Of a DNA stretch of 64,000 bases, positions 33,162 through 63,060 are shown one piece after another. A model generated the notes under the pieces. That model did not search any database, was not told where the DNA came from, and was given only the letters and a program-made list of their open reading frames with translations. A program made the position numbers and the translations under genes. The stretch comes from Patescibacteria group bacterium (GTDB lineage: Bacteria > Patescibacteriota > Patescibacteriia > UBA10025 > JAHIVO01). The stretch lies in the NCBI GenBank assembly GCA_028718605.1, contig JAQULM010000001.1:193699-257698 (forward strand), read 5' to 3'. Numbering within the stretch: position 1 is the first letter of the stretch; every line of letters begins with the position of its first letter.

Positions 33162-34151
33162 TTAGTCAATGAATGTTGCATCAAATGCCCACCGAGTGCA
33201 CCGGTTGATGTCACGCTGGGACAGAATCTTCTCGCGGCGCAATATCTCCTGCTCTTCAAAAATATTCGTATCGTACATTTCGGGACCGTCGGTATTGATG
33301 GTAAACCGGATTTTGTTCCTCAGAATAGTCTGTATGATCCGCTTTAACTCAGATTTATCCCGAATTACCGAATTCCGTAAGTTCGATGTCGGGCACAGTT
33401 CGAGCGTGATCTTGCGCTTAACGATATCCCGCATTAAAGCAGGATCCTGCACGCACAGAAATCCATGCCCGATCCGGTCCGGCTGGATTGTCCTCACCAC
33501 GTACCGGAGTTCAGGAATATTCCCTTCCTCACCCGCGTGCACGGTTACGCCCAAACCGGCTTTACGCGCCTTCCGGAACAGCGGGGTGTGTTTCTGGATT
33601 GAAAATGACTTGCGCTGGGGGCCAGCCAAGTCAATGCCGACTATCCCGCTCGCGCGATAGCGGATGGCCTTTTCTAAAATGATAGCATTCTGCTTATACG
33701 TAAACATCCGGTCCATCATCAGAATGATTCCAGCGCGTACCTGGGGGTATTCAAACATCGCGCGATCCAAGCCCCAGAGGGCAGCGACGATGATATGGTC
33801 GAGATCCCGCTCACCACCACGATTTCGGAACATCGGATTGAACCGCAATTCCTGCAGTACGATGTTGCACTTTCGGTAGCCGCCACCAAGCACACTCGTC
33901 ACCGACTCTTCGATAGCCTCCGGCGACGACTGGATGAGCTCAGTCCAATAGAAATACTTATTGTGCATGTCGTCGAGCGTTTTATTCCGTTCCGAGCCGG
34001 ACATGGTGATCATGTCCTCGAAATCCCAGTAGTTTTTCGTTGGCAGCCGTATTCCCTGCCGGTGCGCAATCGACCATAGGATCGCCGGATGAACCGATGA
34101 TCCGAGGTGGGCATGGAGCTCGGCACGTGCAATGCTTGTTTTTGGTGGCAT
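33162..34151 (-). CDS. add: Adenosine deaminase family protein
   Basis: The motifs ELHAHL, VTVHAGE, RIGHG, ELCPTSN and TINTDGP are present. Confidence 0.7.
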   Translation of the reverse strand: MPPKTSIARAELHAHLGSSVHPAILWSIAHRQGIRLPTKNYWDFEDMITMSGSERNKTLDDMHNKYFYWTELIQSSPEAIEESVTSVLGGGYRKCNIVLQELRFNPMFRNRGGERDLDHIIVAALWGLDRAMFEYPQVRAGIILMMDRMFTYKQNAIILEKAIRYRASGIVGIDLAGPQRKSFSIQKHTPLFRKARKAGLGVTVHAGEEGNIPELRYVVRTIQPDRIGHGFLCVQDPALMRDIVKRKITLELCPTSNLRNSVIRDKSELKRIIQTILRNKIRFTINTDGPEMYDTNIFEEQEILRREKILSQRDINRCTRWAFDATFID

Positions 34152-34155
34152 AAAA

Positions 34156-35238
34156 TTATTGGTAGTTTGGAGCTTTCTTACGGATCGTTATACTGTGCGG
34201 ATGCGACTCTAAAAAGCTTGCGCTCGTTATCTGGATAAATCTCGCTTGGCGCGGAAGGTCGACAATTCGCTGAGCCCCGAGATAGCCCATGCCGCTCCGC
34301 AGCCCGCCGGTTAAATGCCATATAATATCAGAAACCGGACCACAGTACGGGACCGCGCCTTCAACGCCTTCTGGCACGTAGCGTGCAGCGCCACGCTGAA
34401 AATAGCGGTCTGATGATTTTCCTCCCCGCATAGCGCCGAGGCTTCCCATACCGCGGTATGTTTTATATTTCTTGCCGCCGATGTGGATCAGTGTACCCGG
34501 CGCTTCGGTTGTCCCCGCGAGGAGCGAACCAAGCATGACGGTCGACGCGCCTGCAGCAAGCGCTTTCACGATATCACCGGAGTATTTGATCCCGCCGTCC
34601 GCAATAATGGGGATCCGGTACTTACGCGCTATTGGATACACGTTCTGAATTGCGGTAAGCTGCGGTACGCCAACGCCAGTCACGACTCGCGTGGTACAGA
34701 TCGCCCCCGGTCCGATGCCGACTTTGAGCGCGTCGGCAAACGGCGCAATCGCACGTGCCGCTTCTGCAGTCGCGATATTGCCGACAACCACTTGTGCGCG
34801 TACCGCCCGCTTGATCTTCTTCGCGTCAGCGATAATCCGGCTGTTGTGCGCATGCGCGCAATCAACAAAAAGAACGCCGGTTCCCGCGCGATCCAGTGCG
34901 ACCGCACGCTCGATGTCATGGGGGCCGACGGCCGCCCCGACGAGCACATGTTGGCGTTGTACGCGGCGAACCATTGTGACTTCATCGGAAATGGTGCAAT
35001 TACGGTGGAGAACCGCCATGCCGCCAAGTTTTCCCAGGGCAATCGCCATTCGAACGCCACTTACCGTATCCATGGCTGCGGCAAGAATCGGTACCTGGAG
35101 ATTCAAGCGTTTCGTTAGGGCAGACGAGAGATCAACTTCGCGGCGCACCACCATAGAGTATCGTGGCTCGAGGAGCACGTCATCGAAGGTAAGGCCGAGT
35201 GGAAAATGGTCCTGTTTCATGCGGTTTGGGGAGGTCAA
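34156..35238 (-). CDS. guaB: IMP dehydrogenase lacking the CBS subdomain (IMPDH/GMP-reductase family)
   Basis: The catalytic loop [11 protein letters not shown], the flap [15 protein letters not shown] and the C-terminal ...KKAPNY are present. The protein is only 360 aa. Confidence 0.8.
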
Positions 35239-43332: not shown

Positions 43333-45858
43333 TCAAACGTTGCGAACCCCCATTGACGGACCCTGCGTTGCCGCGGGCTGGCCCAAACGCGATTTCTCCA
43401 TGGTTTCCTCTTCAACTATTTTCCGGTCCCTGCCGTACTTCATACGTGAAAGTTCAATGAGATAGCTGGCCATTTCGGGGCTCCCCGGCTGGGGCGGGTA
43501 CGTCTTCATATTAAACGGTTTGGAGGACGTATTATCAATGAGGAGTTTCGCGTTCGCGGTATACATGTCGACGTTAATGACATCGTACTCGTTGAATACG
43601 GGCTCGAATTCCTTGGCGAGAATCTCAGCGTCGTCCACGCCCACACGGAACGCGATGAGCGTTCCGGCATTGCCGAACACCGCATCCCGTATTTTCGTAT
43701 CATTATTGTCACGGACGAGCTGGCCGACGTATTGGTGGGCCATGGTGAGATTGAGGTGGTACTTGCGCGCCTCGGACAGGATCGTCGCGATCGAATCAGT
43801 AACAAAATTCTGGAACTCATCGATATACAGGTAGAAATCGCTGCGCTGCTCCTGCGGCATGCTCACCCGGCGCATTGCAGCCATCTGCAGTTTCGATACG
43901 ATAATCAATCCGAGGAGGTTTGAGTTCACTTCGCCCGTGGTGCCCTTTGCTAGATTCACAAGCAGGATTTTTTTCTTGTTCATGACCTCATCGAAATCAA
44001 ATCCGGAATGCTCCTGGCCGATGATGTTTCGCATCATGCTGTTCTCGACGAACCGGCCGACTTTTGAAATCAAGTACCCGAGCATCTCGGACTTGTGAAA
44101 ATCGGACGTCTTAGCCATCTCTTTTTCCCAGAACGCACGGACGATCGGATCCTTCACCTTTGCCAGCTTATACTTCTGGTACGCGGGATCAGTGAACATG
44201 CGCGGTATTTCCGCGATCGTGCCGGGATGCTCCTCGTCCTCCATGAGGGTGAGCATCACATTGCGCATGTTGTGCTCGAACATCGGGCCGATCATTTCCG
44301 GCGGGAATAATTTGTAGAATATCGCAACCATTTCCTGGACTGCGAAATCCTTTTCTTCCGGGCTCCTGGCCTCCAGCATATTCAAGCCAATCGGCCTCCC
44401 CATATCAGACGGATTGAAATGAATGACGTCCTCCGCGCGCTCCCGGGGGATGTGCGGCAGGATATCGTTGATCAGGTCGCCGTGGGGATCAACAACGCCG
44501 ACTCCCTCACCGTTCAGAATGTCCTGAATAATCATATTGGAAAGCAAAACCGATTTGCCGACGCCGGATTTGCCGATGACGTACACGTGCCGCTGGCGAT
44601 CCCGCTGCTTGATCCGGATAATGGTATCCTGCCCCCGGTATTCGCAGTGCCCGAGAACAAGCCCCTCAGTGGGAATATTCGGCGGTGGCGGCGCTTTGCG
44701 TGCCGTGAGCCACCTGATATTCGGCGTTTCGGTCGTCGGCAGCGGAAAGTGGAATACGCTCGTCATCTCCTCCGTATTCAGTATCAACCCACATTTCGGC
44801 ATAAACCGGCGATAGATGAAATCCCTGACGAGCTTATCTGTATTGACGCCCTTGCGCACAAGGCCATTGCCGTACTCATAGAGCGTAAACTGGCTATAGG
44901 TATTTTCGAGATTTTTTAAAATTGCTTGCGCCCGCTCCTTGCTCTGCGCGGCAACAACAATGCGGATATTCACTTCCATGCCCGCTTTGGACGTCTTGTC
45001 CTCGAGGCTCTTCGCGATTTCCTCCTCGCGCGGAGACAGCTGGTGCGTCGGCTCAAATTCCTCCTTCTTCTTTTTTGGAAAAAATGTCCTCGCCAATTCA
45101 ACTATAAAGCCAACGAACCCGCGGCGCCCAACCGCGTCTTTCAGCTTCTTACCCATGTGCATCTCGCGTGCAGCGTGGGCGCCCCAGTTATGCCATTGCG
45201 CTTTCGCGGAACGAACCACGTACTGGATCGCGATTCCCTCATTCTCCGCGACTTTTGAGAGCGCATTCGTGATGGAGTTCAGCGGGTCAATGTCCAGCTG
45301 CTTATACGTGCGGATCGGAAAAATATACGGCTTCTTGAATTTAAAGGCTGTTCCCGTGACTGCGCTGGTCGGATGGAATAGGTTATATTCATCGACTTCC
45401 TCTATTTGGGCATCCGGGTACTGCGCGTGGATGTGCTGCTCCATGTACTGCTGCAAGTACCGCGGCACAACGACATAGAATGAAATTAGCCCATGGAGCG
45501 CGACGATCTCGAGCGAAAAATGGTCATGCCTTCCGGCTATGTATGAACCCATACCGCGTTCGGCTTTCATGCCCCCGAGCACGGTAAACCACGCTTCCGC
45601 GTCTGCAAGCAGCTCCGGAACTGTACGCCGCTGCCTGCCTTCCTCCTCCTGGACTGCCGCCTCTTTGGGAAGCGTAACGAGAAGGAAAACTTTATGGAAT
45701 TCAAGTGGCAGCGCACGCTGGCTCCGCAACCGGCGCATGATAATGCCAAGGGCGCCTGCAACAATACAAAGCGCGGCCAGGCTCACGAGGATGATAGTGA
45801 AGGCCGGATTGGCGAGAAGTTCGCTGAACCCACCTGTGTTTGCTGAGCCGAATGGCAT
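43333..45858 (-). CDS. VirB4/TrbE/TraE-like type IV secretion or conjugation ATPase (FtsK/HerA superfamily) with an N-terminal TM helix
   Basis: At 841 aa, Walker A YVIGKSGVGKSV lies near residue 430, followed by VVDPHGDL. The Walker B-like motif is YLYIDEFQNF. Confidence 0.6.
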   Translation of the reverse strand: MPFGSANTGGFSELLANPAFTIILVSLAALCIVAGALGIIMRRLRSQRALPLEFHKVFLLVTLPKEAAVQEEEGRQRRTVPELLADAEAWFTVLGGMKAERGMGSYIAGRHDHFSLEIVALHGLISFYVVVPRYLQQYMEQHIHAQYPDAQIEEVDEYNLFHPTSAVTGTAFKFKKPYIFPIRTYKQLDIDPLNSITNALSKVAENEGIAIQYVVRSAKAQWHNWGAHAAREMHMGKKLKDAVGRRGFVGFIVELARTFFPKKKKEEFEPTHQLSPREEEIAKSLEDKTSKAGMEVNIRIVVAAQSKERAQAILKNLENTYSQFTLYEYGNGLVRKGVNTDKLVRDFIYRRFMPKCGLILNTEEMTSVFHFPLPTTETPNIRWLTARKAPPPPNIPTEGLVLGHCEYRGQDTIIRIKQRDRQRHVYVIGKSGVGKSVLLSNMIIQDILNGEGVGVVDPHGDLINDILPHIPRERAEDVIHFNPSDMGRPIGLNMLEARSPEEKDFAVQEMVAIFYKLFPPEMIGPMFEHNMRNVMLTLMEDEEHPGTIAEIPRMFTDPAYQKYKLAKVKDPIVRAFWEKEMAKTSDFHKSEMLGYLISKVGRFVENSMMRNIIGQEHSGFDFDEVMNKKKILLVNLAKGTTGEVNSNLLGLIIVSKLQMAAMRRVSMPQEQRSDFYLYIDEFQNFVTDSIATILSEARKYHLNLTMAHQYVGQLVRDNNDTKIRDAVFGNAGTLIAFRVGVDDAEILAKEFEPVFNEYDVINVDMYTANAKLLIDNTSSKPFNMKTYPPQPGSPEMASYLIELSRMKYGRDRKIVEEETMEKSRLGQPAATQGPSMGVRNV

Positions 45859-45888: not shown

Positions 45889-46422
45889 CTAACCTTGTTT
45901 ATGTTTTTGTTCGTGCAGATTGAGGATGCGGTCTGCCTTGATCTTCGCTTCCTGCTCGAGGAAAAATTTGTTGATACCGGGAATCATCCTCAGCCAGTCG
46001 CGCAAGAGCCCGAGAATCTCCCTGACCTTTACCTTAACGTCACGTAACAGTAATTCAATTTTTGAAGCGGTTTCCTCACCCTTACGCTGGAATGCCATCT
46101 GCTGTTCTGGCGTCATCTGGAGAAAAAGCTCGTCAAGGTGCTCAGATAAGATATGCTCGATCTTCTGCAGTTCAGGGCTTTTTGGCATTGCGGGTGCCGG
46201 TTCTTGAACCGGTTCCTGAACTGGCGGCGGTGCGTACTGCCTGCGTGCCTGCTCATCCTCCCGTGCCTGTTCCCCTTGCACATCTGGCGCTGTTTCACGG
46301 GTCACTTCAGCTGGCCGCTCCCGGATTTCCTGGCCTCCAGGCTGCTGCTCCTGAAACTCAAAAATGTCCTCAATGTTCTGAGGTTTCTGATTTCCTTTTT
46401 CTATATCAGTCGGGGCTGGCAT
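45889..46422 (-). CDS. Hypothetical Pro/Gln/Glu-rich protein
   Basis: The protein has a low-complexity N-terminus and a helical C-terminus. Confidence 0.45.
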   Translation of the reverse strand: MPAPTDIEKGNQKPQNIEDIFEFQEQQPGGQEIRERPAEVTRETAPDVQGEQAREDEQARRQYAPPPVQEPVQEPAPAMPKSPELQKIEHILSEHLDELFLQMTPEQQMAFQRKGEETASKIELLLRDVKVKVREILGLLRDWLRMIPGINKFFLEQEAKIKADRILNLHEQKHKQG

Positions 46423-46620: not shown

Positions 46621-47235
46621 ATGAACTCTTACAGAGGTTTCTCGAAGTGGGTGATTTGTATTGTCGCCCTTTTCATCATCATCGCTAACCCGATGCCTGC
46701 CAACGCCGGCATCGAGAAGGTTCCCAAGAAGGCCGCAAAGGTAGTGTTCTGGCCGTTGAAAACCGTCGGTAAGGCCATCGGAAAAGCAGTTACGCATTGC
46801 GTTAACGAAGGCCGCGCTCTGGAGGAGGCGGAGAACCGCAATCGGGATGATGTCAGTCGTCTTTGGAACATCTTCCTGACCGATGCCAATAAAGTCAATA
46901 TTGGCTTCAGTATCACGTGCGATGGCGCTCAGCTTATTGCACTGGTACAGTACAACGGCCCCTATAGCGGCAATGAAAAACTGACCATCCCGCAAATCAG
47001 CTTTGACAACGGGAAGCACTGGTCGGGGAAATATTTCCACAAGGACAAAAAGAGGAATGCCTGGACGCTCAAATTGGGCAAGGCGAGCTCGATGAAACGC
47101 GGATCAAGTTCGTTCAAGATCCGGATGAGGATCTATGATCCCGATATCGAGTTTGTCGATGGCAAAGAGCAGAAGGGCGACCCTCATTGGGGGCCGTGGG
47201 TGGAAAGTAGTGACTTCAGCCTTAGCTGGAGATGA
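46621..47235 (+). CDS. Secreted hypothetical protein
   Basis: The RBS is aaaggagag. The signal peptide is MNSYRGFSKWVICIVALFIIIANPMPANA. Confidence 0.65.
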   Translation: MNSYRGFSKWVICIVALFIIIANPMPANAGIEKVPKKAAKVVFWPLKTVGKAIGKAVTHCVNEGRALEEAENRNRDDVSRLWNIFLTDANKVNIGFSITCDGAQLIALVQYNGPYSGNEKLTIPQISFDNGKHWSGKYFHKDKKRNAWTLKLGKASSMKRGSSSFKIRMRIYDPDIEFVDGKEQKGDPHWGPWVESSDFSLSWR

Positions 47236-47377
47236 GTGATGAATGGCGTCTGAAATCTTGCGACAACAGTTGCGGGATTCCAGCGAAAGATTACGGGGGT
47301 GTTTCGAACAGTCGAACACCTCTGTTTTCTTTTCCGAAAAACATTGAAAAAATGCGTGAAATGTGATATACTGACAT

Positions 47378-48385
47378 TTGTACTGCTGGTTTTCATGGAA
47401 CCCATGTATGTTTCAGAACTTCACACCAATGTCATACTCACTCATCCTCATACTGCTCGTCGTCGGTGCAGTTATTTTTTGGTTATACAAGGAAAACATT
47501 AAGGTACGCTCAAACTTTTCCGTGCTCAAACTCTACTCAAGAGACCTCTCGGCGCTCGCCCGCGCGGATGAGCTGGATCCGGTCATTGGCCGCGAGCATG
47601 AAGTCGAGCGCCTCATACAGATACTTTCGCGCCGGACAAAAAACAACCCCGTGCTGATTGGCCAGTCAGGTGTCGGAAAAACGGCGATCGTCGAAGGGCT
47701 GGCGAATAAAATCGCGGCTGGCAACGTGACAACCACTCTCACAAACAAACGCGTTTTATCTCTCGACTTGTCGGGCCTGGTCGCCGGTACGAAATACCGC
47801 GGTGAATTCGAGAAGCGCCTCAAATCGCTGGTTGATGAAATCATCGCTGCCAAGCGCGAAATCATTCTATTTATCGATGAAATGCATACGCTGGCAGACG
47901 CCGGCCAGGCAACCGGCGCGATTGACGCCGCAGACATCCTCAAACCGGCATTGGCGCGCGGCGAACTGCAAGTGATTGGCGCAACGACCATGGAAGAGTA
48001 CAAGAAATACGTGGAGCGTGACGCGACACTCGAACGCCGGTTCCAGCCGATCATGATCGATGAGCCGTCAGCAGAAAACACCGTCGAAATCCTGAAAGGC
48101 ATCCGCTCGCGCTACGAAAACCACCACCAGGTGAAAATCAGCGATGACGCGCTCAAGGCGTGCGTCGAGCTTTCCGGCAAATACATCCACGACCGCGTGT
48201 ACCCGGATAAAGCGATTGACCTCATGGACGAGGCTGCGGCAAAAGTGAAGCTCGCGAGCATTGCCCGCAAACCAACGATGCGCGCGGAAATGCTCACGGT
48301 TGGCCCGCAGGATATCGAGTCTGTGATTTCAGAATGGAAAGAGATCGGCCTCGGCATCTCAACGTCGGAAAACAAAAAAGGCTGA
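47378..48385 (+). CDS. Membrane-anchored Clp/Hsp100 D1-only AAA+ ATPase (ClpB/ClpC nucleotide-binding domain 1, without the N-domain, M-domain or D2)
   Basis: An N-terminal TM helix is present. The sequence reads [44 protein letters not shown]...[10 protein letters not shown]...[10 protein letters not shown]...[14 protein letters not shown]. The protein ends after a ClpB-like [17 protein letters not shown]. Confidence 0.7.
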
Positions 48386-48415
48386 TTTTCTAACTACCAT
48401 AATTAGCACACTCCT

Positions 48416-49270
48416 ATGCCGGAACATACATCGGATACTTTTAACGCCATTGGCCAGCACGATTCCCCTCCCACAACGGGTGATGCTCCTGACGAAAGAA
48501 TACCGGTAACCGAAGTCGGGGAACCTGCAGAAACGACGCTCGAATCAGTAAACAACGTAGAACAACTTCTCGCTGCCTGGCTTAAGGAAAGCCGTGAAAC
48601 AACCGATAAAGACAGAAAGGTGGAATTGGCATACTGCATTCTGCAGATGAAGCAGGCGCTCGGCCTGGCACAGCTTGACGCCAGCGAAGTTCGAATCAGG
48701 GATTATGATCCTGGCACCGGGACTGTCGGTTTTTATGAAGAACAAAATGGTCAAACTGGTCAAGTCGGCATAACACCCAAAGGCCTCGAATTGCCGCCGG
48801 AGCATTTTGCAGACGTCTTGGTCCATGAAAGCGCGCATGCCGGAAAAAACACGCACGGCAGAAGAATTTTTGACGAAGGCTTTTGCGAGCTCCTCACGGT
48901 CAAAATTCTGCCCAACGCAATCCGCGGATTCTACCAGAAGGAACAGCAAAAAGCCCGCGAACTGTTCGATGAAGCGCACATGAACGATGCCCTGGAAAAA
49001 TACGATTTCGATAACCCGATGGCGCTCGTCGTGTATTACCTCGGCGTTGAACTGCATGACCGCTGGTCCCGCGTAAAAGCTGATTTTGCCCGAGAACAGT
49101 CAGACCCTGCGTTCGACGAGGCCGCTTTCCTGAAAAAATTCTTGGATGATAATGAAGACATCGAGCAGCAGTTAAAAGAAGGCGCGCCGGATATTTACCG
49201 TAAAATCGAAGCGGTCGGACTCGATTACGACAAAGCCGCGCTGGATATTCTAAAACATTTGGCAGCATAA
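48416..49270 (+). CDS. Hypothetical protein with an HExxH motif (VLVHESAHAG)
   Basis: The gene lies 30 nt downstream of the Clp-like gene. Confidence 0.45.
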   Translation: MPEHTSDTFNAIGQHDSPPTTGDAPDERIPVTEVGEPAETTLESVNNVEQLLAAWLKESRETTDKDRKVELAYCILQMKQALGLAQLDASEVRIRDYDPGTGTVGFYEEQNGQTGQVGITPKGLELPPEHFADVLVHESAHAGKNTHGRRIFDEGFCELLTVKILPNAIRGFYQKEQQKARELFDEAHMNDALEKYDFDNPMALVVYYLGVELHDRWSRVKADFAREQSDPAFDEAAFLKKFLDDNEDIEQQLKEGAPDIYRKIEAVGLDYDKAALDILKHLAA

Positions 49271-49378
49271 GGGGGCAAGGACCAACTGCCATACACGCCC
49301 GAACCGTGCGCATCAACGCGGTACTGTTCGTTTTTTGATTGCCGAAAGCGCCCAAAAACGCTACAATGCAAACATACT

Positions 49379-53300: not shown

Positions 53301-54425
53301 CTATTCAAGCTCGGTAAACCGCTCGAGGAGCTCCCGCTGGGCATGCGACAGGTGCTCGGGCGTAACAACGTTCACGGTCACGAGATGGTCTCCCCTGCCG
53401 CGTGAATGGAGGTGGGGCACGCCCTTGCTGTCCAGCCGAAATACCTTGCCGGACTGGGTCCCAGCCGGGATTTTCAGGATGACTTCGCCGTCAATCGTCA
53501 GCACCGGTATTTTTGCTCCGAGCGCTGCCTGGGGAAATGATATATTCGCTTCAGATAGGATATCGTCGGCCTCGCGCCTGAAATCAGGATCTTTATGAAC
53601 GCGTATCGTCAAGAACAGGTCACCGACGGCACCGCCGCGCGCACCCGCCTCTCCCTTGCCGGACAAACGGATCACCTGCCCGTCGCTGATACCCGCAGGA
53701 ATCTTCACCTTTAACTTTTCCGTTTCCTTCTTGCGCCCTTCGCCACGGCATACTGAACACTTCTTCGAGGCTCGTTTGCCCTCGCCCTTGCAGTCAGGGC
53801 ACGGTACAGCAGTCTGGAACGACCCGAGGATCGTGCGCTGCACCCGGGCAACCTGCCCGCTGCCGCCGCACGTCGGGCATGTTTCAACCTTGGTTCCAGG
53901 TTCCGCGCCATTGCCGCCACAGTGCGGACACACAGTTTGCTTGTACAGGTCAATAATTTTATCGACACCGAACGCCGCTTCCCGAAATTCAACTGTCATC
54001 TCCGCCTGGATATCCTGGCCGCGCCGCGATGCACGCCCTCCCCGCGCCGTGCGCCTGCCGAATCCGAAGAGGTCGCCGAAAATATCGCCGAGGTCGTTCA
54101 TGTCAAACTCCGCTCCCTGCTGTGAAAAACCGCCCCCGAACGGCCCTGCGCCTCCCTGCGCACGCGCAAAATCGTCCCAGGAGAAGCCGCCAGCGCCAGG
54201 GCCCCCTGCACCCCCGCTGAACGCCTGGCCAAACTGGTCATACTGCTTGCGCTTGTCAGGATTGGACAGCACCTGGTATGCCCCGTTGATTTCCTTGAAT
54301 TTCGCTTCATCGCCGCCTGCTTTATCGGGGTGATGCTGGTGTGCGAGCGTGCGGTACGCGCGCTTTATTTCGTCCGGTGACGCGCTCCGCGAAACGCCGA
54401 GTATTTCATAAAAATCCTTTGCCAT
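53301..54425 (-). CDS. dnaJ: Chaperone DnaJ
   Basis: The J-domain MAKDFYEILGVSRSASPDEIKRAYRTLAHQHHPDK is followed by a G/F-rich region and four CxxCxGxG zinc repeats. Confidence 0.95.
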   Translation of the reverse strand: MAKDFYEILGVSRSASPDEIKRAYRTLAHQHHPDKAGGDEAKFKEINGAYQVLSNPDKRKQYDQFGQAFSGGAGGPGAGGFSWDDFARAQGGAGPFGGGFSQQGAEFDMNDLGDIFGDLFGFGRRTARGGRASRRGQDIQAEMTVEFREAAFGVDKIIDLYKQTVCPHCGGNGAEPGTKVETCPTCGGSGQVARVQRTILGSFQTAVPCPDCKGEGKRASKKCSVCRGEGRKKETEKLKVKIPAGISDGQVIRLSGKGEAGARGGAVGDLFLTIRVHKDPDFRREADDILSEANISFPQAALGAKIPVLTIDGEVILKIPAGTQSGKVFRLDSKGVPHLHSRGRGDHLVTVNVVTPEHLSHAQRELLERFTELE

Positions 54426-54432
54426 AGTGCGC

Positions 54433-55476
54433 TTACAGTTTTATCCGTTCAACCTCGATCTGTTCCTTCTCCACGCGTATGAACTTCGTCCATTTCAGTA
54501 TGCAGAACATAAAAAAGCTGAATGATTTAATAAGCTCCCGGTACAGAAAACTAAAAATATTCAGGAGGAAGAAAAGCCCGACAGCCATGATGGCAGGGAA
54601 AAACTTCAGGTACGGGTCGATGTAGGTACTCAAGTTTTTTTCAACGATTTTCCGGACAACGTCGCGCACCTCCTCGTCCCCCGCCGCTTCGATTTTCAAG
54701 GATTTTAGCAGCTCTTCACGCACGCGCGTTATTGACTCAAGTTTCGCCGATTCAGCGGTTTCGTCCAGCACCCGGTCGATTTCATCGCTGCCGGTATCAT
54801 TGGGCAGGACGTTCTCGATCTCGCCAATGCCAACGGTTTCAATAAAGGTATCGAGCTCCATGTGCGGGTTGTATTTGTCTTTGAAATACATGCGCAGGAT
54901 ATTCTCCGCGGCTACCGTCCCATCGTCAATAAGGCTCTTCTCGAGCCTGTCTGAGGCATCATTGCCGGTCACGAGGTAGCTGTAGTACGTAAATGATGCT
55001 GCGAGCAGCACAAGCGTTACGGCGGTCTTCAGGCCAACATTGACCGTCCGCGTCGGCATGAATTTCACCCGGGAACTCCCGTCAATCCGAATTTCGCGGC
55101 GCCAGTACAGGAATGCGAGTGCCATAATGAGGTACCCGATAAAACTCCACACCGAGAACCTGAAAAAAACAAACACCGTTGCCGGCGCGGCCAGCGCCAT
55201 GGCGAGCAACATGAGCTTGCCCCGAATGAGCAGCTCCGCGGCCGCGAGCAGGCAAAACATCAGGCTGAACGCAAGGAGCGTCGTCACGGCAACCATGACA
55301 TTGCGGGATGCCGTTGAAAGCGTAATGCCGGTCACCAGCGCATTGTGCCATACGAGCCAGAACAACGCCGTGCTCCCGACCACCAGGCACAGAAGGACAA
55401 TGACCTTGCCGATCGGTTGGGGCTCTTTCTTTTGCTCCGGTTTTTTCAGGTCTTCCAGTTTTTTATCGACACGCAT
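54433..55476 (-). CDS. Hypothetical membrane protein
   Basis: The start was moved to the internal ATG (MRVDKKLEDL...). Several TM helices are predicted. Confidence 0.45.
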   Translation of the reverse strand: MRVDKKLEDLKKPEQKKEPQPIGKVIVLLCLVVGSTALFWLVWHNALVTGITLSTASRNVMVAVTTLLAFSLMFCLLAAAELLIRGKLMLLAMALAAPATVFVFFRFSVWSFIGYLIMALAFLYWRREIRIDGSSRVKFMPTRTVNVGLKTAVTLVLLAASFTYYSYLVTGNDASDRLEKSLIDDGTVAAENILRMYFKDKYNPHMELDTFIETVGIGEIENVLPNDTGSDEIDRVLDETAESAKLESITRVREELLKSLKIEAAGDEEVRDVVRKIVEKNLSTYIDPYLKFFPAIMAVGLFFLLNIFSFLYRELIKSFSFFMFCILKWTKFIRVEKEQIEVERIKL

Positions 55477-55511
55477 AGGTATGCTCAGTAAAATACTTGG
55501 ATAGCGTTGCG

Positions 55512-55817
55512 TTAGGCCGTCTTGAACCCGATCTCGTTGGCCGAAGGGCCTGCTGCAATCTCGATTTTCCCGAACTTTGCTTCGTACTTTTTGATATTTT
55601 CCTCGAGCGCCTTGAAAATGCGCTTCACGTGCCCGGGCGAGGTGATGACGCGCGACGTTACCACACCGGCGCGCTGCCACGGGTAAATGTTCATGAAGTC
55701 GAGCACAAACTCCTCTTTTGAATGCGAAATGCCCATTGCGTTCGCGTACGTGCCCTTCAGCGTCGCGTCATCGATTTTGATGTTGATCTGCTGCTGTTGC
55801 TGCGGTTGGTTGTCCAT
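55512..55817 (-). CDS. DUF3467 family protein
   Basis: The segment ...NAMGISHSKEEFVLDFMNIYP... fits the family. Confidence 0.55.
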   Translation of the reverse strand: MDNQPQQQQQINIKIDDATLKGTYANAMGISHSKEEFVLDFMNIYPWQRAGVVTSRVITSPGHVKRIFKALEENIKKYEAKFGKIEIAAGPSANEIGFKTA

Positions 55818-56009
55818 AGAATGGTATATGAGTTAATAATTGTGTGTAATTATATCACGAATGTGGTTATTGGGGGTATGCATTGTTCTTTGCGTTTCGT
55901 GGCGATGTGGCGATTATTTGACAGACAAACGACGATGCCGTACACTCTGTACCATTATCTCACTGCATGAAACAAACACACACCCAAAGCGTACAAAGGA
56001 GGTACTCGC

Positions 56010-56342
56010 ATGGCCGGTTATGCAATCAAGGAAGTGATTGACAACTCCAGGCATGGAAAAATGTCAATCAAGCACGACGGCGGCACGTTCTACGTCACCA
56101 AGGACGACCTCGTGGCTGGCGTTACGGTCCTCGAGCTGGCACCGGAAGAGACCGGGGAGATGCTCGAGCGGATCGGCACCAAAGGATGCGTGTTGACAGT
56201 GACTGCCGCGACCCGCGATAGTATTCTGGACGCGCTCGGAATTCCCGCTGAGGAGCGCGAATCCCTCGCAACGCAGGAAGATCTCGCCGCTGCCGCACTC
56301 GAGGTGGACAGCCAACCCCACCGCCATTCCCACACGCCGTAA
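56010..56342 (+). CDS. Hypothetical protein
   Basis: A strong RBS aaaggagg precedes the ATG. Confidence 0.6.
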   Translation: MAGYAIKEVIDNSRHGKMSIKHDGGTFYVTKDDLVAGVTVLELAPEETGEMLERIGTKGCVLTVTAATRDSILDALGIPAEERESLATQEDLAAAALEVDSQPHRHSHTP

Positions 56343-56634
56343 TCCAGCACCCTGCCCGTCGAAATACTCAGGAGCTCCAGCGGTCATTGCGACCAACGGG
56401 GCTCCTTCTATTACCCCGCTTATAAATTGACGCTTTCTCAAAGATCACTTATAGTTCCTGCTGCACATTGCCCTCCAAGCGCTCTTCTTGCTGCTAACCT
56501 TCCCGCAGTATTCTCGAGCGCGTGTGCGGATGAATTGCTCTTCCGCGCAAACGGGTCGCTGATGGTACGCTCCCGTGAATGCGTACCTCCACTTTTTTCC
56601 ACGGAGCCCTCCCACAAGGGCTCCCCCATTACCC

Positions 56635-56671
56635 GGCTCGCCTCCCCCTCACGTTTTTTGGGAGGCGGGCC
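56635..56671 (+). other. Very stable 12-bp stem hairpin with a U-rich loop, preceded by a second 7-bp hairpin at 56603-56624
   Basis: The hairpin is ggctcgcctccc[cctcacgtttttt]gggaggcgggcc and is followed by acttttatt. Confidence 0.5.
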
Positions 56672-56678
56672 ACTTTTA

Positions 56679-56708
56679 TTGACAATAGCGCGGGCTCCAG
56701 AATATTAT
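56679..56708 (+). promoter_or_regulatory. Sigma70-like promoter TTGACA-N18-TATTAT with no downstream CDS (candidate sRNA promoter)
   Basis: The sequence is ttgacaatagcgcgggctccagaatattat. A 10-bp perfect-stem hairpin at 56795-56825 and a T7 run at 56852 lie downstream. Confidence 0.4.
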
Positions 56709-57241
56709 GGGATAAACATACACACACCAACACAGAAAACAAACCACTCAATATAGATAACAGGGCGCAGCAACCCCTGGTTCCTCCCACAATCGCCCGC
56801 GGCGCATACTACCCTCGCCGCGGGCAACTTATAATATTTGAAACGTACGTTGAGTGCTTTTTTTCAGTACCCTTGACAATATGATTAATTGTAACTAACC
56901 TTTTATTGCCATCGTCGCCCTATCACTCTCCCTGCTATGTGTAGGGCATCATGGCACATGCCCAGCGGGTGGTAGCCGCATCCTTACACCAACAAAACTA
57001 CTGCCCCGGGCTTCCCTGCAAGTACCGTGATAAGACATGCTCTCCCAGGGCGTGGCTTATCAGAGCAAGCTGGCGTTTGCGATGTGTGATACTTCATGCT
57101 TTTCCAACCTCCTCGCGTGAGGTATCATACCAAGCCGTGCTTGCTGCATTATTGAGTCAGGTATCCACCCCCGGGTGCCTGGCTCAAATTTTTTTTTCAA
57201 AGAAACCCAACCTTTGTCATGCTAAACTTAATTCAGCATCT

Positions 57242-57709
57242 CTATTTCTTCCTCTCCAAATAATAATCATCAATGGCACGCACGAGCTCAACCGGCTTTG
57301 CGTCAAAAATCCACTCATGCTTGCCCTTGGTGCTATCATTCTCAACAATCAGCGTGTAGCAGTTCGCCATCGAGAGCAGGCAGTGCGGCATGGCAATATG
57401 GAAATGCCATTTCTCGCCTGTCTTGACGTACTTCCGCACCAAATCAAGCGCCTCATGCTTCACTGGCTTCCGGTTGCGGCGTTTGGGCTTATTGAGCTGG
57501 TACGCGTGTTCCTCAAGCTCCTCGCGGAGCTCTTTGGACGAATCGCAGTACAGCATGTCGTCTCCGCATTCGAAAACGATTATTTCCTTTCCTGTGTCAT
57601 TCGCGTAGCATTCCCGCGACAAACAATGGTGGTGCCATCCAGCGCCGGCCTTCATCGCCCGCTCGCGTATTTCATCTTGGGTGGCCTTTTTTCCGAGTTT
57701 TGTAATCAT
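57242..57709 (-). CDS. Hypothetical Cys/His-rich protein
   Basis: The sequence ...GWHHHCLSRECYANDTGKEIIVFECGDDMLYCDSS... has a non-repetitive composition. The antisense ORF 56951-57799 was rejected. Confidence 0.5.
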   Translation of the reverse strand: MITKLGKKATQDEIRERAMKAGAGWHHHCLSRECYANDTGKEIIVFECGDDMLYCDSSKELREELEEHAYQLNKPKRRNRKPVKHEALDLVRKYVKTGEKWHFHIAMPHCLLSMANCYTLIVENDSTKGKHEWIFDAKPVELVRAIDDYYLERKK

Positions 57710-57728
57710 TGGATATATCGAGAATTTA

Positions 57729-58373
57729 TTAATAGCCTAAAACTTCTTTCACCAGGACCATGTGCAGCTTCCTCCCTTTCGTCGGGGGACGCTCGATAAT
57801 CAGGATTTCACTGATGACACTCCCCGGTGCACCCAAGCTCTTCATGTGCTCATCCACCAGCGGAAAGACGTACTCCCGAAGCCGCTTCATACCCTCGGGA
57901 AGGGTCGGCACGATTTTCTGCGCGCCGACGACCCAGATGACGTTGTCACTCGTATACGCGTACGACGGCAGCTGGCTGCCCGTAGCCGACCCGATAACCA
58001 TCTGTCCGTCCTCGGTCAGCGCATGGACGCTCGCGAGGAAGTAATCGGCCAGCACGCTCTTCTTGCGCAGTACGTTCTGCTTCACCGGGTCCTTTTCAGC
58101 AACAATATCGTTTTTCAGGTTCTTCCACGGGTGGCCGCCTGATTTCAGCACATCGACAAACCCGATCTGCTCCAATGTCAGCGAGCTGCCGGTCATCACT
58201 TCCGCACCCGCGGGAATCAGGCCCCGCACCGTCCCAAGCGCCTCCTCTTTGTTTTTTACAACGTGAACGATCACGTTTTTCTCCTCCAACGCGCGCTGTG
58301 TTTTATTGATAATGTCTTTTGTTGGTACTGCATCGTATTTCATAATGATTTTCTTTAGTGAATTAGCTTCCAC
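57729..58373 (-). CDS. LUD-domain (LutC/YkgG-like) protein
   Basis: At 214 aa, the segments ...VHVVKNKEEALGTV...GAEVMTGSSLTLEQIG...VIGSATGSQL... fit the family. Confidence 0.45.
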   Translation of the reverse strand: MEANSLKKIIMKYDAVPTKDIINKTQRALEEKNVIVHVVKNKEEALGTVRGLIPAGAEVMTGSSLTLEQIGFVDVLKSGGHPWKNLKNDIVAEKDPVKQNVLRKKSVLADYFLASVHALTEDGQMVIGSATGSQLPSYAYTSDNVIWVVGAQKIVPTLPEGMKRLREYVFPLVDEHMKSLGAPGSVISEILIIERPPTKGRKLHMVLVKEVLGY

Positions 58374-58395
58374 TCAATCTCCCGCGGACTGAAAA

Positions 58396-58896
58396 TTATT
58401 TTTCTGCTTGCGCCTCTTTCTTGCTGGGGTTGCTACTTTTCTTTTTTTCATCAACTAAACCATTTAATGCATCTAAAGTAGCGGCCGATTGCCAATATTC
58501 AATATTAACTGAATGTAAATATGTATTTGCCAATTTTGTATTTATTATTTCCATATCGTATGAAACGGTTTTTTCTAACTCAGAGATATGGGCAATTAAA
58601 TTTCGAAATTTATTTAAATTTTCAAGTTGCTTATTTAATTCCTTATCATCAAAAATTTTTTTAATTATCTTAACTTTTTGTATAAATCTCAGCTCGGCAA
58701 GTACATCTTTTAAAGTTTGTTTCTTCTCTAATAAGTCGGGATTATTATCGACGTTTAATTGAATAATAAGATCCATTACACTTTCAACAAATGCGTGATC
58801 CTTAAGAACCTGTATATCAATCTCCTTCAGGTATATTTTTTGTTTTTCGATGAGCTTATTATACACTCTATCGAAGGCTTCATTAAGATTTGTCAT
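58396..58896 (-). CDS. Hypothetical all-alpha protein with a HEPN-like Rx4H motif (KFRNLIAH), inside an AT-rich island
   Basis: Local GC is roughly 30 percent against more than 50 percent in the flanks. The motif is R-N-L-I-A-H. Confidence 0.45.
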   Translation of the reverse strand: MTNLNEAFDRVYNKLIEKQKIYLKEIDIQVLKDHAFVESVMDLIIQLNVDNNPDLLEKKQTLKDVLAELRFIQKVKIIKKIFDDKELNKQLENLNKFRNLIAHISELEKTVSYDMEIINTKLANTYLHSVNIEYWQSAATLDALNGLVDEKKKSSNPSKKEAQAEK

Positions 58897-58932
58897 AAAT
58901 ATTTATAAATTACGTATATTTTATTGTTTGTT

Positions 58933-59466
58933 TTACCACTGAACAGTAAGACTATGCCTGTTCATAAATTTTTCTAGAGTTTCGTCCCTATAGTAACGCC
59001 CAATAATATTAGCAATACCCACCTGAATTGGAGTATACCAATAACTAAAATTTGCTTTTTCACTCTGCCCACTTATTAACTTTCTTTCTGGAACAGGAAT
59101 AAAATACCTACCTCCGTCCAAAGAAATGAACTCTACTGACACTAATGCCTGACCGTTTACCTTTATTTTCACCGCTCGAACATGCTTTGTTTCATCAGGG
59201 TAATCTTTCATCCAGCCCTCCTTCGTCGTCCAATTATGGCCTACTTCATCGATCTCAATAACAAATTCAGGATGGGTTTCATACTGCCAGTTTGACTCGT
59301 CTCTACTAATATTTATTTTTTTCCACTTTTTGGTTCTCTTTAGGTAATACTTAACCCTTTTAATGGGACTAATATAGGTAATTATTGCAAGATAGCTTCC
59401 AATAATTGTAGCGATTAATCCTAAAATTGTTACTATCCACGACATCCAATTCATACATTCCCCCAA
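58933..59466 (-). CDS. Hypothetical N-terminally membrane-anchored protein, the first gene of the AT-rich island
   Basis: The TM helix is WMSWIVTILGLIATIIGSYLAIITYI. The gene is AT-rich and lies 36 nt upstream of the HEPN-like gene. Confidence 0.45.
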   Translation of the reverse strand: MGECMNWMSWIVTILGLIATIIGSYLAIITYISPIKRVKYYLKRTKKWKKINISRDESNWQYETHPEFVIEIDEVGHNWTTKEGWMKDYPDETKHVRAVKIKVNGQALVSVEFISLDGGRYFIPVPERKLISGQSEKANFSYWYTPIQVGIANIIGRYYRDETLEKFMNRHSLTVQW

Positions 59467-59586
59467 AGAGCCCGCCCGGCTTTGCTTGAGGCAATACCGA
59501 TAGCGGACGGGCGGGCCCCAAACTGAGAACCCGCCCTTTGCGTATTAACTACATTGAAATTGTAAATTAGTTTTCATGGCAGCATA

Positions 59587-61509
59587 CTACTTCTTTACTT
59601 CCTCATACTGCGCGTCGACAGGGCCTTTATCCTGTTTCGGGGGCTCTTGCTTTGACCCGCCTGGTTGCGCGCCTCCTGAGCTCTGCGAAGGACCTCCTTT
59701 GGGCGGTTCTTGCTTCTGGTACATCGCCTGCCCGATCTTTTGGATTGTCTGCGACAGCTCATCCGTCGCTTTCTTGATTTCAGCCATGTCATCCTTGTCC
59801 TTCACTTTTTTCAGCGCTTCAATCTTTTCCTCAACCTCTTTCTTCACTTTCGCATCGAGCTTGTCGCCGGCATCCTTCACCGCTTTTTCGGCGGTGTAGG
59901 TCAGGGTTTCCGCCTGGTTGCGCGCATCGATCAGGTCTTTCTTTTTCTTGTCCTCGTCCGCGTGCTTGGACGCGTCCTGCTTCATTTTCTCCACTTCATC
60001 TTTTGACAAGCCGGATGACGCGGTAATGGTGATGGACTGCTCCTTGCCCGTCGCGCGGTCTTTTGCTTTGACATTGAGGATGCCGTTTGCATCAATGTCG
60101 AACGTAACCTCAACCTGCGGTACCCCGCGTGGTGACGGCGGAATGCCGGACAGGATAAACTTTCCCAAGGTCTTGTTGTCAGGCGCCATAGGCCGTTCGC
60201 CCTGCAGCACGTGGATTTCAACGCTTGTCTGGTTGTCAGCAGCCGTCGAAAACACCTGCGACTTGGACGTCGGGATGGTGGTATTGCGTTCAATCAATGG
60301 GGTAGAAACATTGCCCAGTGTTTCGATGCCGAGCGTCAGCGGCGTCACGTCGAGCAGCAGGACGTCTTTTACGTCCCCTTGCAGCACGCCTGCCTGCACT
60401 GCGGCACCGAGCGCCACGACTTCGTCCGGGTTTACGCCGATATGCGGTTTCTTGCCAAAGAATTTTTCAACCGTCTCGAGCACTTTTGGCATTCTCGTCA
60501 TGCCGCCAACCATGACGACCTCGTTGATATCTGTCGTCTTCACGTTCGCGTCAGCGAGCGCCTTTTTGACCGGCTCAATCGTTTTTTCAATGAGATCGCC
60601 AACCAAGTCTTCCAGTTTCGCCCGCGTGAGCTTCACGGTAAGATGCTTGGGCCCGGAAGCGTCAGTGGTGATAAACGGCAGGTTAATCTCAGTTTCCGTG
60701 GTTGTGGACAACTCGATCTTTGCCTTTTCGCCCTGCTCTTTGAGGCGCTGCAATGCCATCGGGTCTTTGCCCAGGTCAATGCCCTGGTCTTTCTTGAATT
60801 CCTCGATCAGCCAGTCAATGATGCGCTTGTCAAAATCATCGCCGCCGAGATGTGTATCGCCGTTCGTGGACTTCACCTCAACCGTATCTGATGCGACGTC
60901 GAGAATCGAAATATCGAACGTGCCGCCGCCCAGGTCGTACACGGCGATCTGCTGGTTCTTCTTTTTCTCGAAGCCGTAGGCGAGTGCAGCCGCGGTTGGT
61001 TCATTAATGATACGTTTTACCTTCAAGCCTGCGATCTCGCCCGCGTCCTTAGTCGCCTGGCGCTGGGAGTCATCAAAATACGCCGGTACGGTGATGACCG
61101 CTTCTTCGATTTTCTCGCCCAATTTCGCTTCCGCGTCCGCTTTCAGCTTCTGGAGAATCATTGCCGACACTTCCTGCGGCGTGTACTCCTTGCCGGCCAT
61201 GATGACCTTCACGCCTTCGCCGGCATGGACGATTTTGTACGGCATGGTTTTCACGTCACGCTGTACCTCATCGTCGCTCCAGTGGCGGCCGATCAAGCGT
61301 TTGATCGAAAAAATCGTGTTTTCATAATTTGTGACAGCCTGCCGCTTGGCAATCTGCCCGACCATGCGCTCGCCTGCCTTGTTGATCGCAACAACAGACG
61401 GCGTGGTCCTGTTCCCTTCTTTGTTCTCGAGCACTTTTGGCTCGCCTCCCTCGATGATTGCCATCGCGGAGTTGGTCGTGCCGAGATCGATTCCTAGAAT
61501 TTTTGACAT
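59587..61509 (-). CDS. dnaK: Chaperone DnaK (Hsp70)
   Basis: The motifs [26 protein letters not shown] and [11 protein letters not shown] are present, together with the acidic C-terminus. Confidence 0.97.
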
Positions 61510-61544
61510 ACAACGTCTATCCTTTCAAAATTATTAATGATTGA

Positions 61545-62003
61545 TTAATGAATGTTTTGGAGAAAATTATCTGTTTTTTCCATTGCTTCATGGAGCGTGA
61601 GTACGTCCTCGCTCTTCACTGCCGCCTCGTCCCTGAACCGCAGCACTTCATCCTGCTCCAGGTCGGTGAGCGCTGTGGCGACTTTCAGGCCAAAGCTGCC
61701 AAGGGCAATGATGGAGAGCGCAGCGCTGTCGCACACTGAACATTTGATATACATGAGCGTGGCTCCGTCCTCTTCCAGGAGCACCTCGAGTTTGCCGAAG
61801 TCGTACAGCGTGCCGCATACGGGGCAGCGCGCATCGATTTTGATGCGTTCTGGCTTGCCGCCCGGCCGCTTGGGCATGCCGGGAAAATCGCTCCCGTTCA
61901 TTATTTTCATATAAATGCTTTTATAAATTATTACTGGCTGAAGTGAGGAGATAACAGCCATCGTTTTGCGGCTTACCTCTCTCGCTTCGGCCAGGCTGCC
62001 CAT
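61545..62003 (-). CDS. Hypothetical protein with two CxxC pairs (zinc-ribbon-like), inserted between hsp20 and dnaK
   Basis: The pairs are CPVCGT and CSVCDS. Confidence 0.5.
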   Translation of the reverse strand: MGSLAEAREVSRKTMAVISSLQPVIIYKSIYMKIMNGSDFPGMPKRPGGKPERIKIDARCPVCGTLYDFGKLEVLLEEDGATLMYIKCSVCDSAALSIIALGSFGLKVATALTDLEQDEVLRFRDEAAVKSEDVLTLHEAMEKTDNFLQNIH

Positions 62004-62026
62004 GGGCAGCCTAACCGGACGCGGCC

Positions 62027-62461
62027 TTATTTGGTTTTATTTTTCTTGACCGCGATTTTTATAGTTTTTGGCTTCACCTCTTCCGCTTTCGGGATGGTAA
62101 TCTTGAGCATCCCGTTCTCGAATTCCGCTTTTGCCTGGTCGCCTTTCACGTGCGTCGGCAGTGCGACGGCGCGGTAGAAACTGCCCATGCGGACTTCTTT
62201 GCGGTAGTAGTTCTTGTCGTCCACTTCAGACTTATGCTCGACTTTGCCCTCGATCTTGAGGACGTCATTTTCGATCGACACCGTCACCTTGTCCGGATCC
62301 ACGCCTGCGAGCGGGGTTTCCGCGATGACATTGTCCTTGTCGTGGTACACGTCCACTGCCGGCGTAAACGCCTGCATATTGCCGGGCATCATCGGCATGT
62401 CTTCGAAGAACTTGTCGACATCCGCCGTGTCAAACATTGGTCTCCAACGTATAATTGCCAT
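62027..62461 (-). CDS. Hsp20/alpha-crystallin family small heat-shock protein
   Basis: The alpha-crystallin domain reads ...PAVDVYHDKDNVIAETPLAGVDPDKVTVSIENDVLKIEGK...ENGMLKITIPK. Confidence 0.9.
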   Translation of the reverse strand: MAIIRWRPMFDTADVDKFFEDMPMMPGNMQAFTPAVDVYHDKDNVIAETPLAGVDPDKVTVSIENDVLKIEGKVEHKSEVDDKNYYRKEVRMGSFYRAVALPTHVKGDQAKAEFENGMLKITIPKAEEVKPKTIKIAVKKNKTK

Positions 62462-62503
62462 AATGTTGTTCGTTAATTAATTAGTTAGTTATTCTTTTAC
62501 AAA

Positions 62504-62531
62504 TATTGGGTATTGGAAATTGGATATTGGA
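62504..62531. promoter_or_regulatory. Four perfect-period heptamer direct repeats, TATTGG(G/A), immediately upstream of hsp20
   Basis: The repeat is tattgggtattggaaattggatattgga with a 7-bp period, followed by a TTGTAA...TAATTA promoter-like element on the minus strand. Confidence 0.35.
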
Positions 62532-62535
62532 TATT

Positions 62536-63042: not shown

Positions 63043-63060
63043 TACTATACAAGTTATATG

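Follow-up and report, generated by a model that had tools for sequence, protein, structure and literature searches.

We analyzed a 64,000-nucleotide stretch of DNA from a Patescibacteria group bacterium (contig JAQULM010000001.1, positions 193,699 to 257,698; hereafter the window) and found that one of its genes encodes an AAA+ ATPase composed of one N-terminal membrane helix and a complete ClpC/ClpB-type D1, the first nucleotide-binding module of Hsp100 proteins. We are highly confident that this protein, hereafter the D1-only protein, belongs to a conserved Patescibacteria family and that it lacks the N-domain, the M-domain, the second AAA+ module (D2) and the ClpP-docking loop. Hsp100 proteins are textbook double-ring machines, and to our knowledge the known single-ring Hsp100 derivatives, the Torsins and Skd3/CLPB, come from D2. 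The D1-only protein is a new architectural variant derived from a ClpC-type D1, and no description of a membrane-anchored D1-only Clp protein was found in the literature. By analogy with known membrane-bound ATPases, we propose tentatively, at slightly less than an even chance, that it works as an extractase or unfoldase; structure and mechanism taken jointly form the best explanation, which we regard as rather probable.

Pfam searches of the D1-only protein detected AAA (PF00004) and AAA_lid_9. The NCBIfam ClpB profile matched with an E value of 3e-120 at its positions 150-404 of 853 only, the ClpA profile was aligned at 163-435 of 734, and the ClpV profile also matched, all three with scores far under the full-length cut-offs. 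Since the alignments cover the first nucleotide-binding module only, D1 alone is present. No Clp_N domain was matched by Pfam, residues 1-37 consisting of the membrane helix and a basic linker, and no FtsH or Peptidase_M41 model of Pfam or NCBIfam matched the protein; as judged from its sequence, the AAA+ module is a member of the Clp D1 clade and not of the FtsH clade. The closest relative with a solved structure was ClpC/MecB of B. subtilis (residues 158-414, E 7e-100), followed by S. aureus ClpC, M. tuberculosis ClpC1 and ClpB, and the identity to canonical ClpC/ClpB D1 modules was about 58-67%. PADLOC returned generic AAA matches only (IetA and TRIP13), without matching any defence system. 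Neither Pfam nor NCBIfam was found to have a model dedicated to the family, whose members are labelled in databases as "ClpC", "ClpA", "ATP-dependent Clp protease ATP-binding subunit" or "AAA family ATPase".

The elements of a class-I Hsp100 D1 were all located in the protein: Walker A and B, a KYR pore loop, sensor-1, arginine fingers and an AAA_lid_9 small subdomain (Table 1; residue numbers of motifs refer to the 325-amino-acid form). An alignment of 49 diverse members showed that the Walker A residues, the whole pore loop A126-E135, D157/E158, T194 and R210/R211 are invariant, as is the lid signature R263/P266-D267-K268-A269. An AlphaFold model built from the family alignment (predicted local distance difference test 90, predicted template modelling score 0.83) was composed of a helix at residues 7-36, an α/β large subdomain, a helical lid and a final helix at residues 300-323. 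Across 272 columns, Foldseek superposed this model with deviations of 1.7-2.7 Å on D1 protomers of ClpC, ClpC1 and ClpB from hexamers with bound substrate. Together with the restricted profile alignments and the hydropathy, these results bear out the initial annotation, which had described an N-terminal membrane helix fused to a single ClpB/ClpC-type D1 with complete Walker A, Walker B and sensor motifs.

The position of the membrane helix relative to D1 is fixed in the family. A constant spacing of about 30 residues separates the hydrophobic core from the DPVIGR motif, and D1 itself accounts for about 20 of them. Across the family, the net charge is -0.5 ahead of the core and +2.1 over the 15 residues that follow. 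Because this charge bias fits the positive-inside rule, the short N-terminus is predicted to lie outside and the ATPase in the cytoplasm, with roughly 10 residues tethering it to the helix. Since the hydrophobic stretch comes first and the positive charges second, it is unlikely to be a cleavable signal peptide.

The C-terminal end of the protein coincides with a domain boundary. In ClpC and ClpB, the M-domain sits inside the D1 small subdomain. The tail motif V-x-x-D-I-x-x-V-x-x-W of the D1-only protein is the counterpart of a short conserved segment of ClpC and ClpB, VGPEEIAGIVASWTGVPV in a Bacillota ClpC, which comes after the M-domain and closes D1 ahead of the linker to D2. From the PDKAID motif to the conserved Trp there are 44 amino acids in the D1-only protein; ClpC has about 95 over this stretch and ClpB about 155. 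This spacing and the retained tail segment show that the M-domain is cleanly absent and that the protein ends at the D1/D2 boundary. The ClpA profile, which has no M-domain, aligned unbroken to residue 323 of 335 in the longer open reading frame, the protein stops 15 residues past the tail motif, and the C-terminal tail past Trp310 is not conserved in the family alignment.

Neither D2 nor the M-domain nor the ClpP-docking loop was detected. The AAA_2 and ClpB_D2-small domains that define D2 are missing; so is the M-domain of ClpB/Hsp104, which carries the site of coupling to DnaK, the ClpB profile alignment ending at position 404; and the IGF/IGL loop by which ClpA and ClpC dock ClpP belongs to D2 and is absent with it. 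The initial annotation had listed the N-domain, the M-domain and D2 as lacking, and had seen no frameshifted continuation into M-domain or D2 coding sequence nearby. Both observations held: tblastn with full-length ClpC and ClpB found no M-domain or D2 coding sequence in the 64-kb window, hitting the D1 region only, and no D2 or M-domain remnants were found in 7 related loci.

How widely this truncated form is shared was seen when 5.8 billion proteins were searched. Among the 120 top matches, identity to the D1-only protein was 60-81%, and all of them were 303-350 amino acids long and carried an N-terminal hydrophobic helix; the sequence of the helix varies and the D1 module is conserved. A search seeded with a divergent member revealed a second subtype of about 375-395 amino acids, as large as the first and comprising about 110 further clusters that are mostly labelled Uhrbacteria. 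This subtype, hereafter the ~385-amino-acid subtype, has the same anchor and tail and no D2. It also carries an insert of about 60 residues, a charged, heptad-like coiled coil that resembles the M-domain of ClpC; in the ClpB profile the insert is matched by positions 404-477, which make up the first half of the M-domain. Both subtypes together amount to more than 230 protein clusters (at 90% identity) with the membrane helix and D1-only architecture. An exhaustive search of representatives, which returned mostly full-length Hsp100s and fragments, added five further anchored D1-only clusters. The named sources were all Patescibacteria ("Patescibacteria group", Candidatus Kerfeldbacteria, Buchananbacteria and Uhrbacteria). 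Scanning contigs with the single protein was swamped by true ClpB/ClpC of Bacillota and Alphaproteobacteria, the D1 peptide patterns being universal.

In neighbor-joining trees of the D1 region, the anchored D1-only proteins formed one clade against 61 full-length Hsp100 D1 modules (125/125 in the first tree), with a bootstrap of 77/100 in a reduced set containing both subtypes. The two length classes were not reciprocally monophyletic. The family looks like the descendant of a ClpC-like ancestor whose N-domain was replaced by a membrane helix and whose D2 was lost, the M-domain being lost later in some lineages. Compared with the six orthologues for which DNA was available, the proportion of synonymous differences was saturated (0.74-0.84) and the nonsynonymous rate (dN) was 0.18-0.35, with a ratio of nonsynonymous to synonymous rates (dN/dS) of 0.08-0.11 in the two computable pairs, showing that the D1-only gene is under strong purifying selection.

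These data decide the question, raised in the initial annotation, of whether the gene is a degraded remnant of clpB or clpC, that is, a pseudogene left after loss of the N-domain, the M-domain and D2. The architecture does equal a fragment of a class-I Hsp100, and the NCBI contig record has no protein at the locus. However, a remnant would not be expected to recur in the same length class with a membrane helix in more than 230 clusters, to keep all catalytic motifs invariant, to show low dN beside saturated synonymous sites, to form a monophyletic clade, to end exactly at a domain boundary with no trace of D2 or M-domain, or to have a promoter-like site just upstream. Conservation of the truncated form in relatives, the opposite of what decay predicts, refutes this explanation and leaves it extremely unlikely.

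The start of the gene was also revised. The mechanical open reading frame begins at TTG 47378; the promoter-like site directly 5' of the gene ends at 47372, which would place this TTG at approximately the transcript start. The true start is most likely ATG 47408, because homologues of 319-325 amino acids have the same N-terminus and the Logan assembly calls a protein of 325 amino acids.

We compared the D1-only protein with known systems. The D1 of ClpC (B. subtilis MecB, S. aureus ClpC and M. tuberculosis ClpC1) is the best match in both sequence and structure, with the same Walker A and B, KYR pore loop, sensor-1 and paired arginine fingers, and a short coiled coil similar to the ClpC M-domain is kept in the ~385-amino-acid sister subtype. 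Unlike ClpC, the D1-only protein has no Clp_N and hence no binding site for MecA or arginine phosphate, and no D2 and hence no ClpP-binding loop; the subtype of the window also lacks the M-domain. It has an N-terminal membrane helix instead and would form a single rather than a double ring. The D1 of ClpA is collinear, without an M-domain, the profile running through the small subdomain, but its similarity is lower than that of ClpC/ClpB, and the D1-only protein differs from ClpA in lacking the N-domain, D2 and the IGL loop and in being membrane-anchored. Torsins and Skd3/CLPB are likewise Hsp100 modules that persist as a single ring, and Torsins also have an N-terminal hydrophobic segment for membrane association. 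However, Torsins are D2-derived, lack the arginine finger and the pore-loop aromatics and reside in the lumen of the endoplasmic reticulum, whereas the D1-only protein has all D1 catalytic elements; Skd3, too, is D2-derived and carries ankyrin repeats.

In functional terms, the closest analogy is found in eukaryotes. Msp1/ATAD1 is a membrane-protein extractase that consists of one N-terminal membrane helix and a single hexameric AAA+ ring, with no protease. The D1-only protein would have the same architecture, and Msp1/ATAD1 is in our view the best functional analogue for the extraction proposed here, although it belongs to another AAA+ clade, is eukaryotic and has no sequence relation past the AAA+ core. 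The likeness to FtsH is that an N-terminal anchor closely precedes one cytoplasmic AAA+ ring, whose entrance would be expected to face the membrane. The anchor of the D1-only protein is predicted to place the ring at the membrane in the same way, with one helix where FtsH has two; in addition, FtsH has a classic-clade AAA module and a fused M41 zinc peptidase, whereas the D1-only protein has a module of the Clp D1 clade and no fused or obligate M41 HExxH peptidase.

On this basis we propose the following mechanism. Six copies of the D1-only protein would probably form one ring on the cytoplasmic side of the membrane. Hsp100 rings take in their substrate through the face of D1 that carries the N-termini; in the D1-only protein this face, tied to the membrane by six short tethers, would set the pore entrance against the bilayer. 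ATP hydrolysis and the invariant Tyr pore loop would then grip and pull polypeptides at the membrane. By pulling on cytoplasmically exposed segments, the ring would probably extract, unfold or take apart proteins of the membrane or envelope, and the extruded chain might be released for refolding or passed to FtsH or another protease. The invariant arginine fingers, the pore-loop Tyr and a modelled protomer that superposes on hexamer-derived ClpC are indirectly consistent with hexamer formation and ATP-driven translocation. A broader version, in which Kerfeld-, Uhr- and Buchananbacteria evolved a counterpart of Msp1 from the Hsp100 D1, a stand-alone anchored single-ring extractase/unfoldase without D2, M-domain, ClpP or fused peptidase that might share labour, where present, with a ClpA-like paralogue whose own D1 is catalytically dead, is possible but doubtful.

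Several observations weigh against the proposal that the D1-only protein is a membrane extractase. Isolated D1 fragments of ClpB/Hsp104 oligomerise poorly without D2. No operator of the type known as controlling inverted repeat of chaperone expression (CIRCE) was found near the gene with up to 3 mismatches, the only CIRCE of the window being at hrcA (63789-63815), which leaves a link to heat shock unsupported. The NCBI record of the contig (GCA_028711455.1, JAQTSE010000003.1; L001 8820-10001) has no protein at the gene that the Logan assembly calls, and the annotation pipeline may have handled it as truncated, pseudo or defective. Finally, a VirD4-like ATPase is syntenic with the D1-only gene in 7 short-subtype genomes, which could indicate a more specific role and is taken up below.

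If the proposed extractase mechanism is true, a ring of D1 modules would suffice by itself as a threading motor, and Patescibacteria with their reduced genomes would have a route of membrane-protein quality control that is undescribed in other bacteria. This would fill a gap in the proteostasis and envelope biology of a huge, mostly uncultured, reduced-genome lineage of ultra-small bacteria. A conserved, intact D1-only ring at the membrane would be a natural minimal system in which to ask whether D1 alone assembles and threads. Recognising the family also corrects its annotation and prevents ClpCP-type proteolysis from being inferred from genes labelled "ClpC" or "ClpA".

Table 1. Positions in the window of the D1-only ATPase gene, its motifs and neighbouring features
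Feature	Position	Strand	Remarks
Open reading frame of the D1-only ATPase	47378..48385	+	Mechanical open reading frame; TTG start, 335 amino acids
D1-only Hsp100/ClpC-like AAA+ ATPase gene	47408..48385	+	325 amino acids from ATG 47408
Promoter-like site	47344..47372	+	TTGAAA-17 nt-TATACT, TG before the -10 hexamer; consensus scan, 10/12 matches; prediction only
Hydrophobic core of the N-terminal membrane helix, residues 10-27	47435..47488	+	18 residues; hydropathy 2.49; within AlphaFold helix 7-36
Walker A, GQSGVGKT, residues 85-92	47660..47683	+	G85, S87, G88, V89, G90, K91 and T92 invariant in 49 members
D1 substrate-threading pore loop, residues 126-135, with Tyr130	47783..47812	+	Invariant in 49 members; same type as the ClpC/ClpB D1 loop
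Walker B, IILFIDE, residues 152-158, with D157 and E158	47861..47881	+	Motif found; D157/E158 invariant in 49 members
Sensor-1 GATT (191-194) through arginine-finger motif LERRFQ (208-213; R210, R211)	47978..48046	+	Motif and 49-member alignment
Last element of the D1 small subdomain, residues 296-310	48293..48337	+	Homologous to the post-M-domain segment of ClpC/ClpB
Orphan HExxH protein gene	48416..49270	+	284 amino acids; 30 nt past the D1-only stop
Terminator-like hairpin and T-run	49303..49322	+	After the HExxH gene, before the cysS promoter-like site 49339-49367
VirD4/TrwB-like coupling ATPase	43333-45858	-	841 amino acids; N-terminal DUF8128 region and membrane helix; context, not shown to be part of the feature
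Conserved partner of the VirD4-like ATPase	45889-46422	-	177 amino acids; uncharacterised; context

The gene downstream of the D1-only gene does encode, as the initial annotation had stated, a protein with an HExxH motif, HESAH (residues 137-141, 48824-48838), and without a membrane segment. Because no terminator-like site lies between the two genes and one follows the second, the HExxH and D1-only genes probably share one transcript, an arrangement that is unique to the present genome. From the gene pair it had been suggested that the two might resemble a minimal FtsH split over two genes; in such a protease the anchored ATPase would feed the downstream metallopeptidase. The HExxH protein had only three homologues in the protein search, with 42-54% identity, in Komeilibacteria and Buchananbacteria; H137, E138, H141, D153, E154 and E158 do not vary among the four sequences, which makes a zincin-type metal site plausible. 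Two homologues had weak YgjP-like metallopeptidase matches over the motif (E 0.006 and 0.018), and SprT-like and M91 matches of the HExxH family were weaker (E about 0.16). The search for a peptidase fold gave no Pfam or NCBIfam peptidase family over threshold and no known fold, and the protein does not resemble the M41 peptidase domain of FtsH.

The 30-nt gap, the probable co-transcription and the invariant putative metal site would suit such a two-gene protease, but the pairing is not conserved. No HExxH homologue was found downstream of the D1-only gene in six related genomes, where cysS, EamA, Dus or small open reading frames stand instead, or in loci of the Uhrbacteria type. Likewise, no AAA+ gene was found near any of the three homologues, whose neighbourhoods are unrelated: SET and decarboxylase genes in one, SecA and Maf in another, and a phage-type integrase in the third. 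The G+C content at third codon positions was 0.52 for the HExxH gene compared with 0.63-0.69 for the D1-only gene, cysS, EamA, dnaJ and dnaK, and this atypical value suggests a later acquisition. The gene appears to be a lineage-restricted orphan that was inserted between the D1-only gene and cysS in this one genome; it is a chance neighbour and no part of the ATPase machine. With an ATPase of the Clp clade and a partner that is not kept in relatives, we consider a two-gene FtsH-like protease very unlikely, and the D1-only protein is better read as an ATPase acting without this neighbour.

A full-length Hsp100 was encoded beside one family member. The contig L093 (JGI 3300014208, Ga0172379_10000028) carries a D1-only member of about 390 amino acids and, 6 kb apart, an 859-amino-acid Hsp100 (L093:1-2165, + strand) with Clp_N, two AAA modules and ClpB_D2-small and no M-domain, collinear with ClpA. 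Its D1 is degenerate, the Walker B DE being changed to EG and the pore loop KYR to DVG, and its D2 is intact. Since one contig encodes both proteins, the D1-only protein, at least in this genome, is by its gene content a specialised paralogue with its own role and not a replacement. That the two are complementary in their active modules is a lead only. It fits an explanation in which the D1 ring cooperates, by stacking or mixing, with a separately encoded Hsp100 that supplies D2, such as this ClpA-like paralogue with a dead D1. Yet the pair was seen in one genome only, the D1 of the 859-amino-acid protein and those of the D1-only proteins are just 24-28% identical, no D2-type gene was found in the window or within 6-10 kb in 7 related loci, and the membrane tether would constrain the geometry of stacking. 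We know of no precedent for such a split Hsp100 and judge it quite unlikely, preferring a single anchored D1 ring.

The neighbours of the ~385-amino-acid subtype differ from those in the window. In the two loci examined, L093 and L094, neither a VirD4-like gene nor an HExxH gene like that of the window was present near the D1-only gene; the neighbours were dnaB and metK in one, and ftsA/ftsZ and Peptidase_M50 in the other. The genes downstream of the D1-only gene in both encode membrane-anchored, β-rich surface proteins that are homologous neither to each other nor to the HExxH protein. The Peptidase_M50 gene (site-2 protease-like, with HExxH; L094:10581-11255, + strand) lies two genes downstream of the D1-only gene and was seen once. 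Because the downstream genes differ between loci, the D1-only gene appears to have no conserved operon partner and its product to act on its own.

The most persistent neighbours are a VirD4/TrwB-like coupling ATPase and its partner (Table 1). In the 7 short-subtype genomes, all from Patescibacteria, the opposite strand carries, 1.5-3 kb from the D1-only gene, divergently oriented genes for a VirD4-like protein (841-897 amino acids, DUF8128 at its N-terminus) and for its partner of some 170 amino acids. The order of this conserved block is the VirD4-like gene and its partner, variable genes for small secreted proteins (often with CorA), the D1-only gene, cysS, EamA and, farther away, dnaJ to dnaK. 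Identities across the genomes were 51-73% for the VirD4-like protein and 38-52% for the partner. No description of DUF8128 was found in the literature. In the window, the 841-amino-acid protein matches the PADLOC model mad8 with E 7e-15. A 204-amino-acid protein with an N-terminal signal or anchor and no family match (46621-47235, + strand) is encoded between the divergent promoter region and the D1-only gene; no homologue of it was found in the six syntenic loci, where its position holds variable small secreted proteins, and often CorA as well.

This synteny, which persists despite divergence to 51% and 38% identity, could mean that the D1-only protein serves as an accessory ATPase in envelope-protein biogenesis or in a VirD4/TrwB-like (DUF8128) apparatus for secretion or DNA transfer, where it would unfold or release specific substrates. 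The intervening genes for small secreted or membrane proteins and the anchored β-rich surface proteins downstream in the Uhrbacteria-type loci point in the same direction. Against it, the block includes the housekeeping genes dnaX, cysS, dnaJ and dnaK, the intervening genes are variable, the 204-amino-acid protein being without counterpart elsewhere, the VirD4-like gene is missing near the D1-only gene in L093 and L094, and the two genes lie on opposite strands with separate promoters. Because the block holds housekeeping genes and the intervening genes vary, the synteny probably reflects inherited gene order, and a dedicated accessory role is unlikely; a general extractase or unfoldase is the reading we retain for the D1-only protein.

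Further observations were made on related proteins and on the rest of the window. In the representative library, the proteins P0126, P0127, P0130, P0131, P0134, P0148, P0178, P0202 and P0267, of 550-1335 amino acids, have tandem D1-D1 modules, not D1-D2, and P0125 looks like an assembly or duplication artefact. A dispersed heat-shock cluster occupies 53301-63815 on the - strand of the window, containing hrcA (63061-63795), grpE (62536-63042), an open reading frame of 152 amino acids, dnaK (59587-61509), several unknown genes, an open reading frame of 415 amino acids without a family (54433-55680) and dnaJ (53301-54425). The operator at hrcA is a perfect CIRCE, TTAGCACTC-N9-GAGTGCTAA (63789-63815). 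An unknown protein of about 380 amino acids and a DUF3467 protein between dnaK and dnaJ form a pattern that recurs in related genomes.

At the other end of the window, two large predicted surface proteins of 1246 and 1107 amino acids are encoded at 55-3795 and 5542-8865 (+ strand) and contain DUF11, SpaA/prealbumin-like, SdrD-B and CARDB repeats. They are followed by a CAP-domain protein (9222-10958) and then an Ig-domain protein (11119-12231). A block for purine salvage and interconversion at 26774-35238 (- strand) encodes adenylosuccinate lyase, adenylosuccinate synthetase, GMP synthase, adenosine deaminase and IMP dehydrogenase/GMP reductase.

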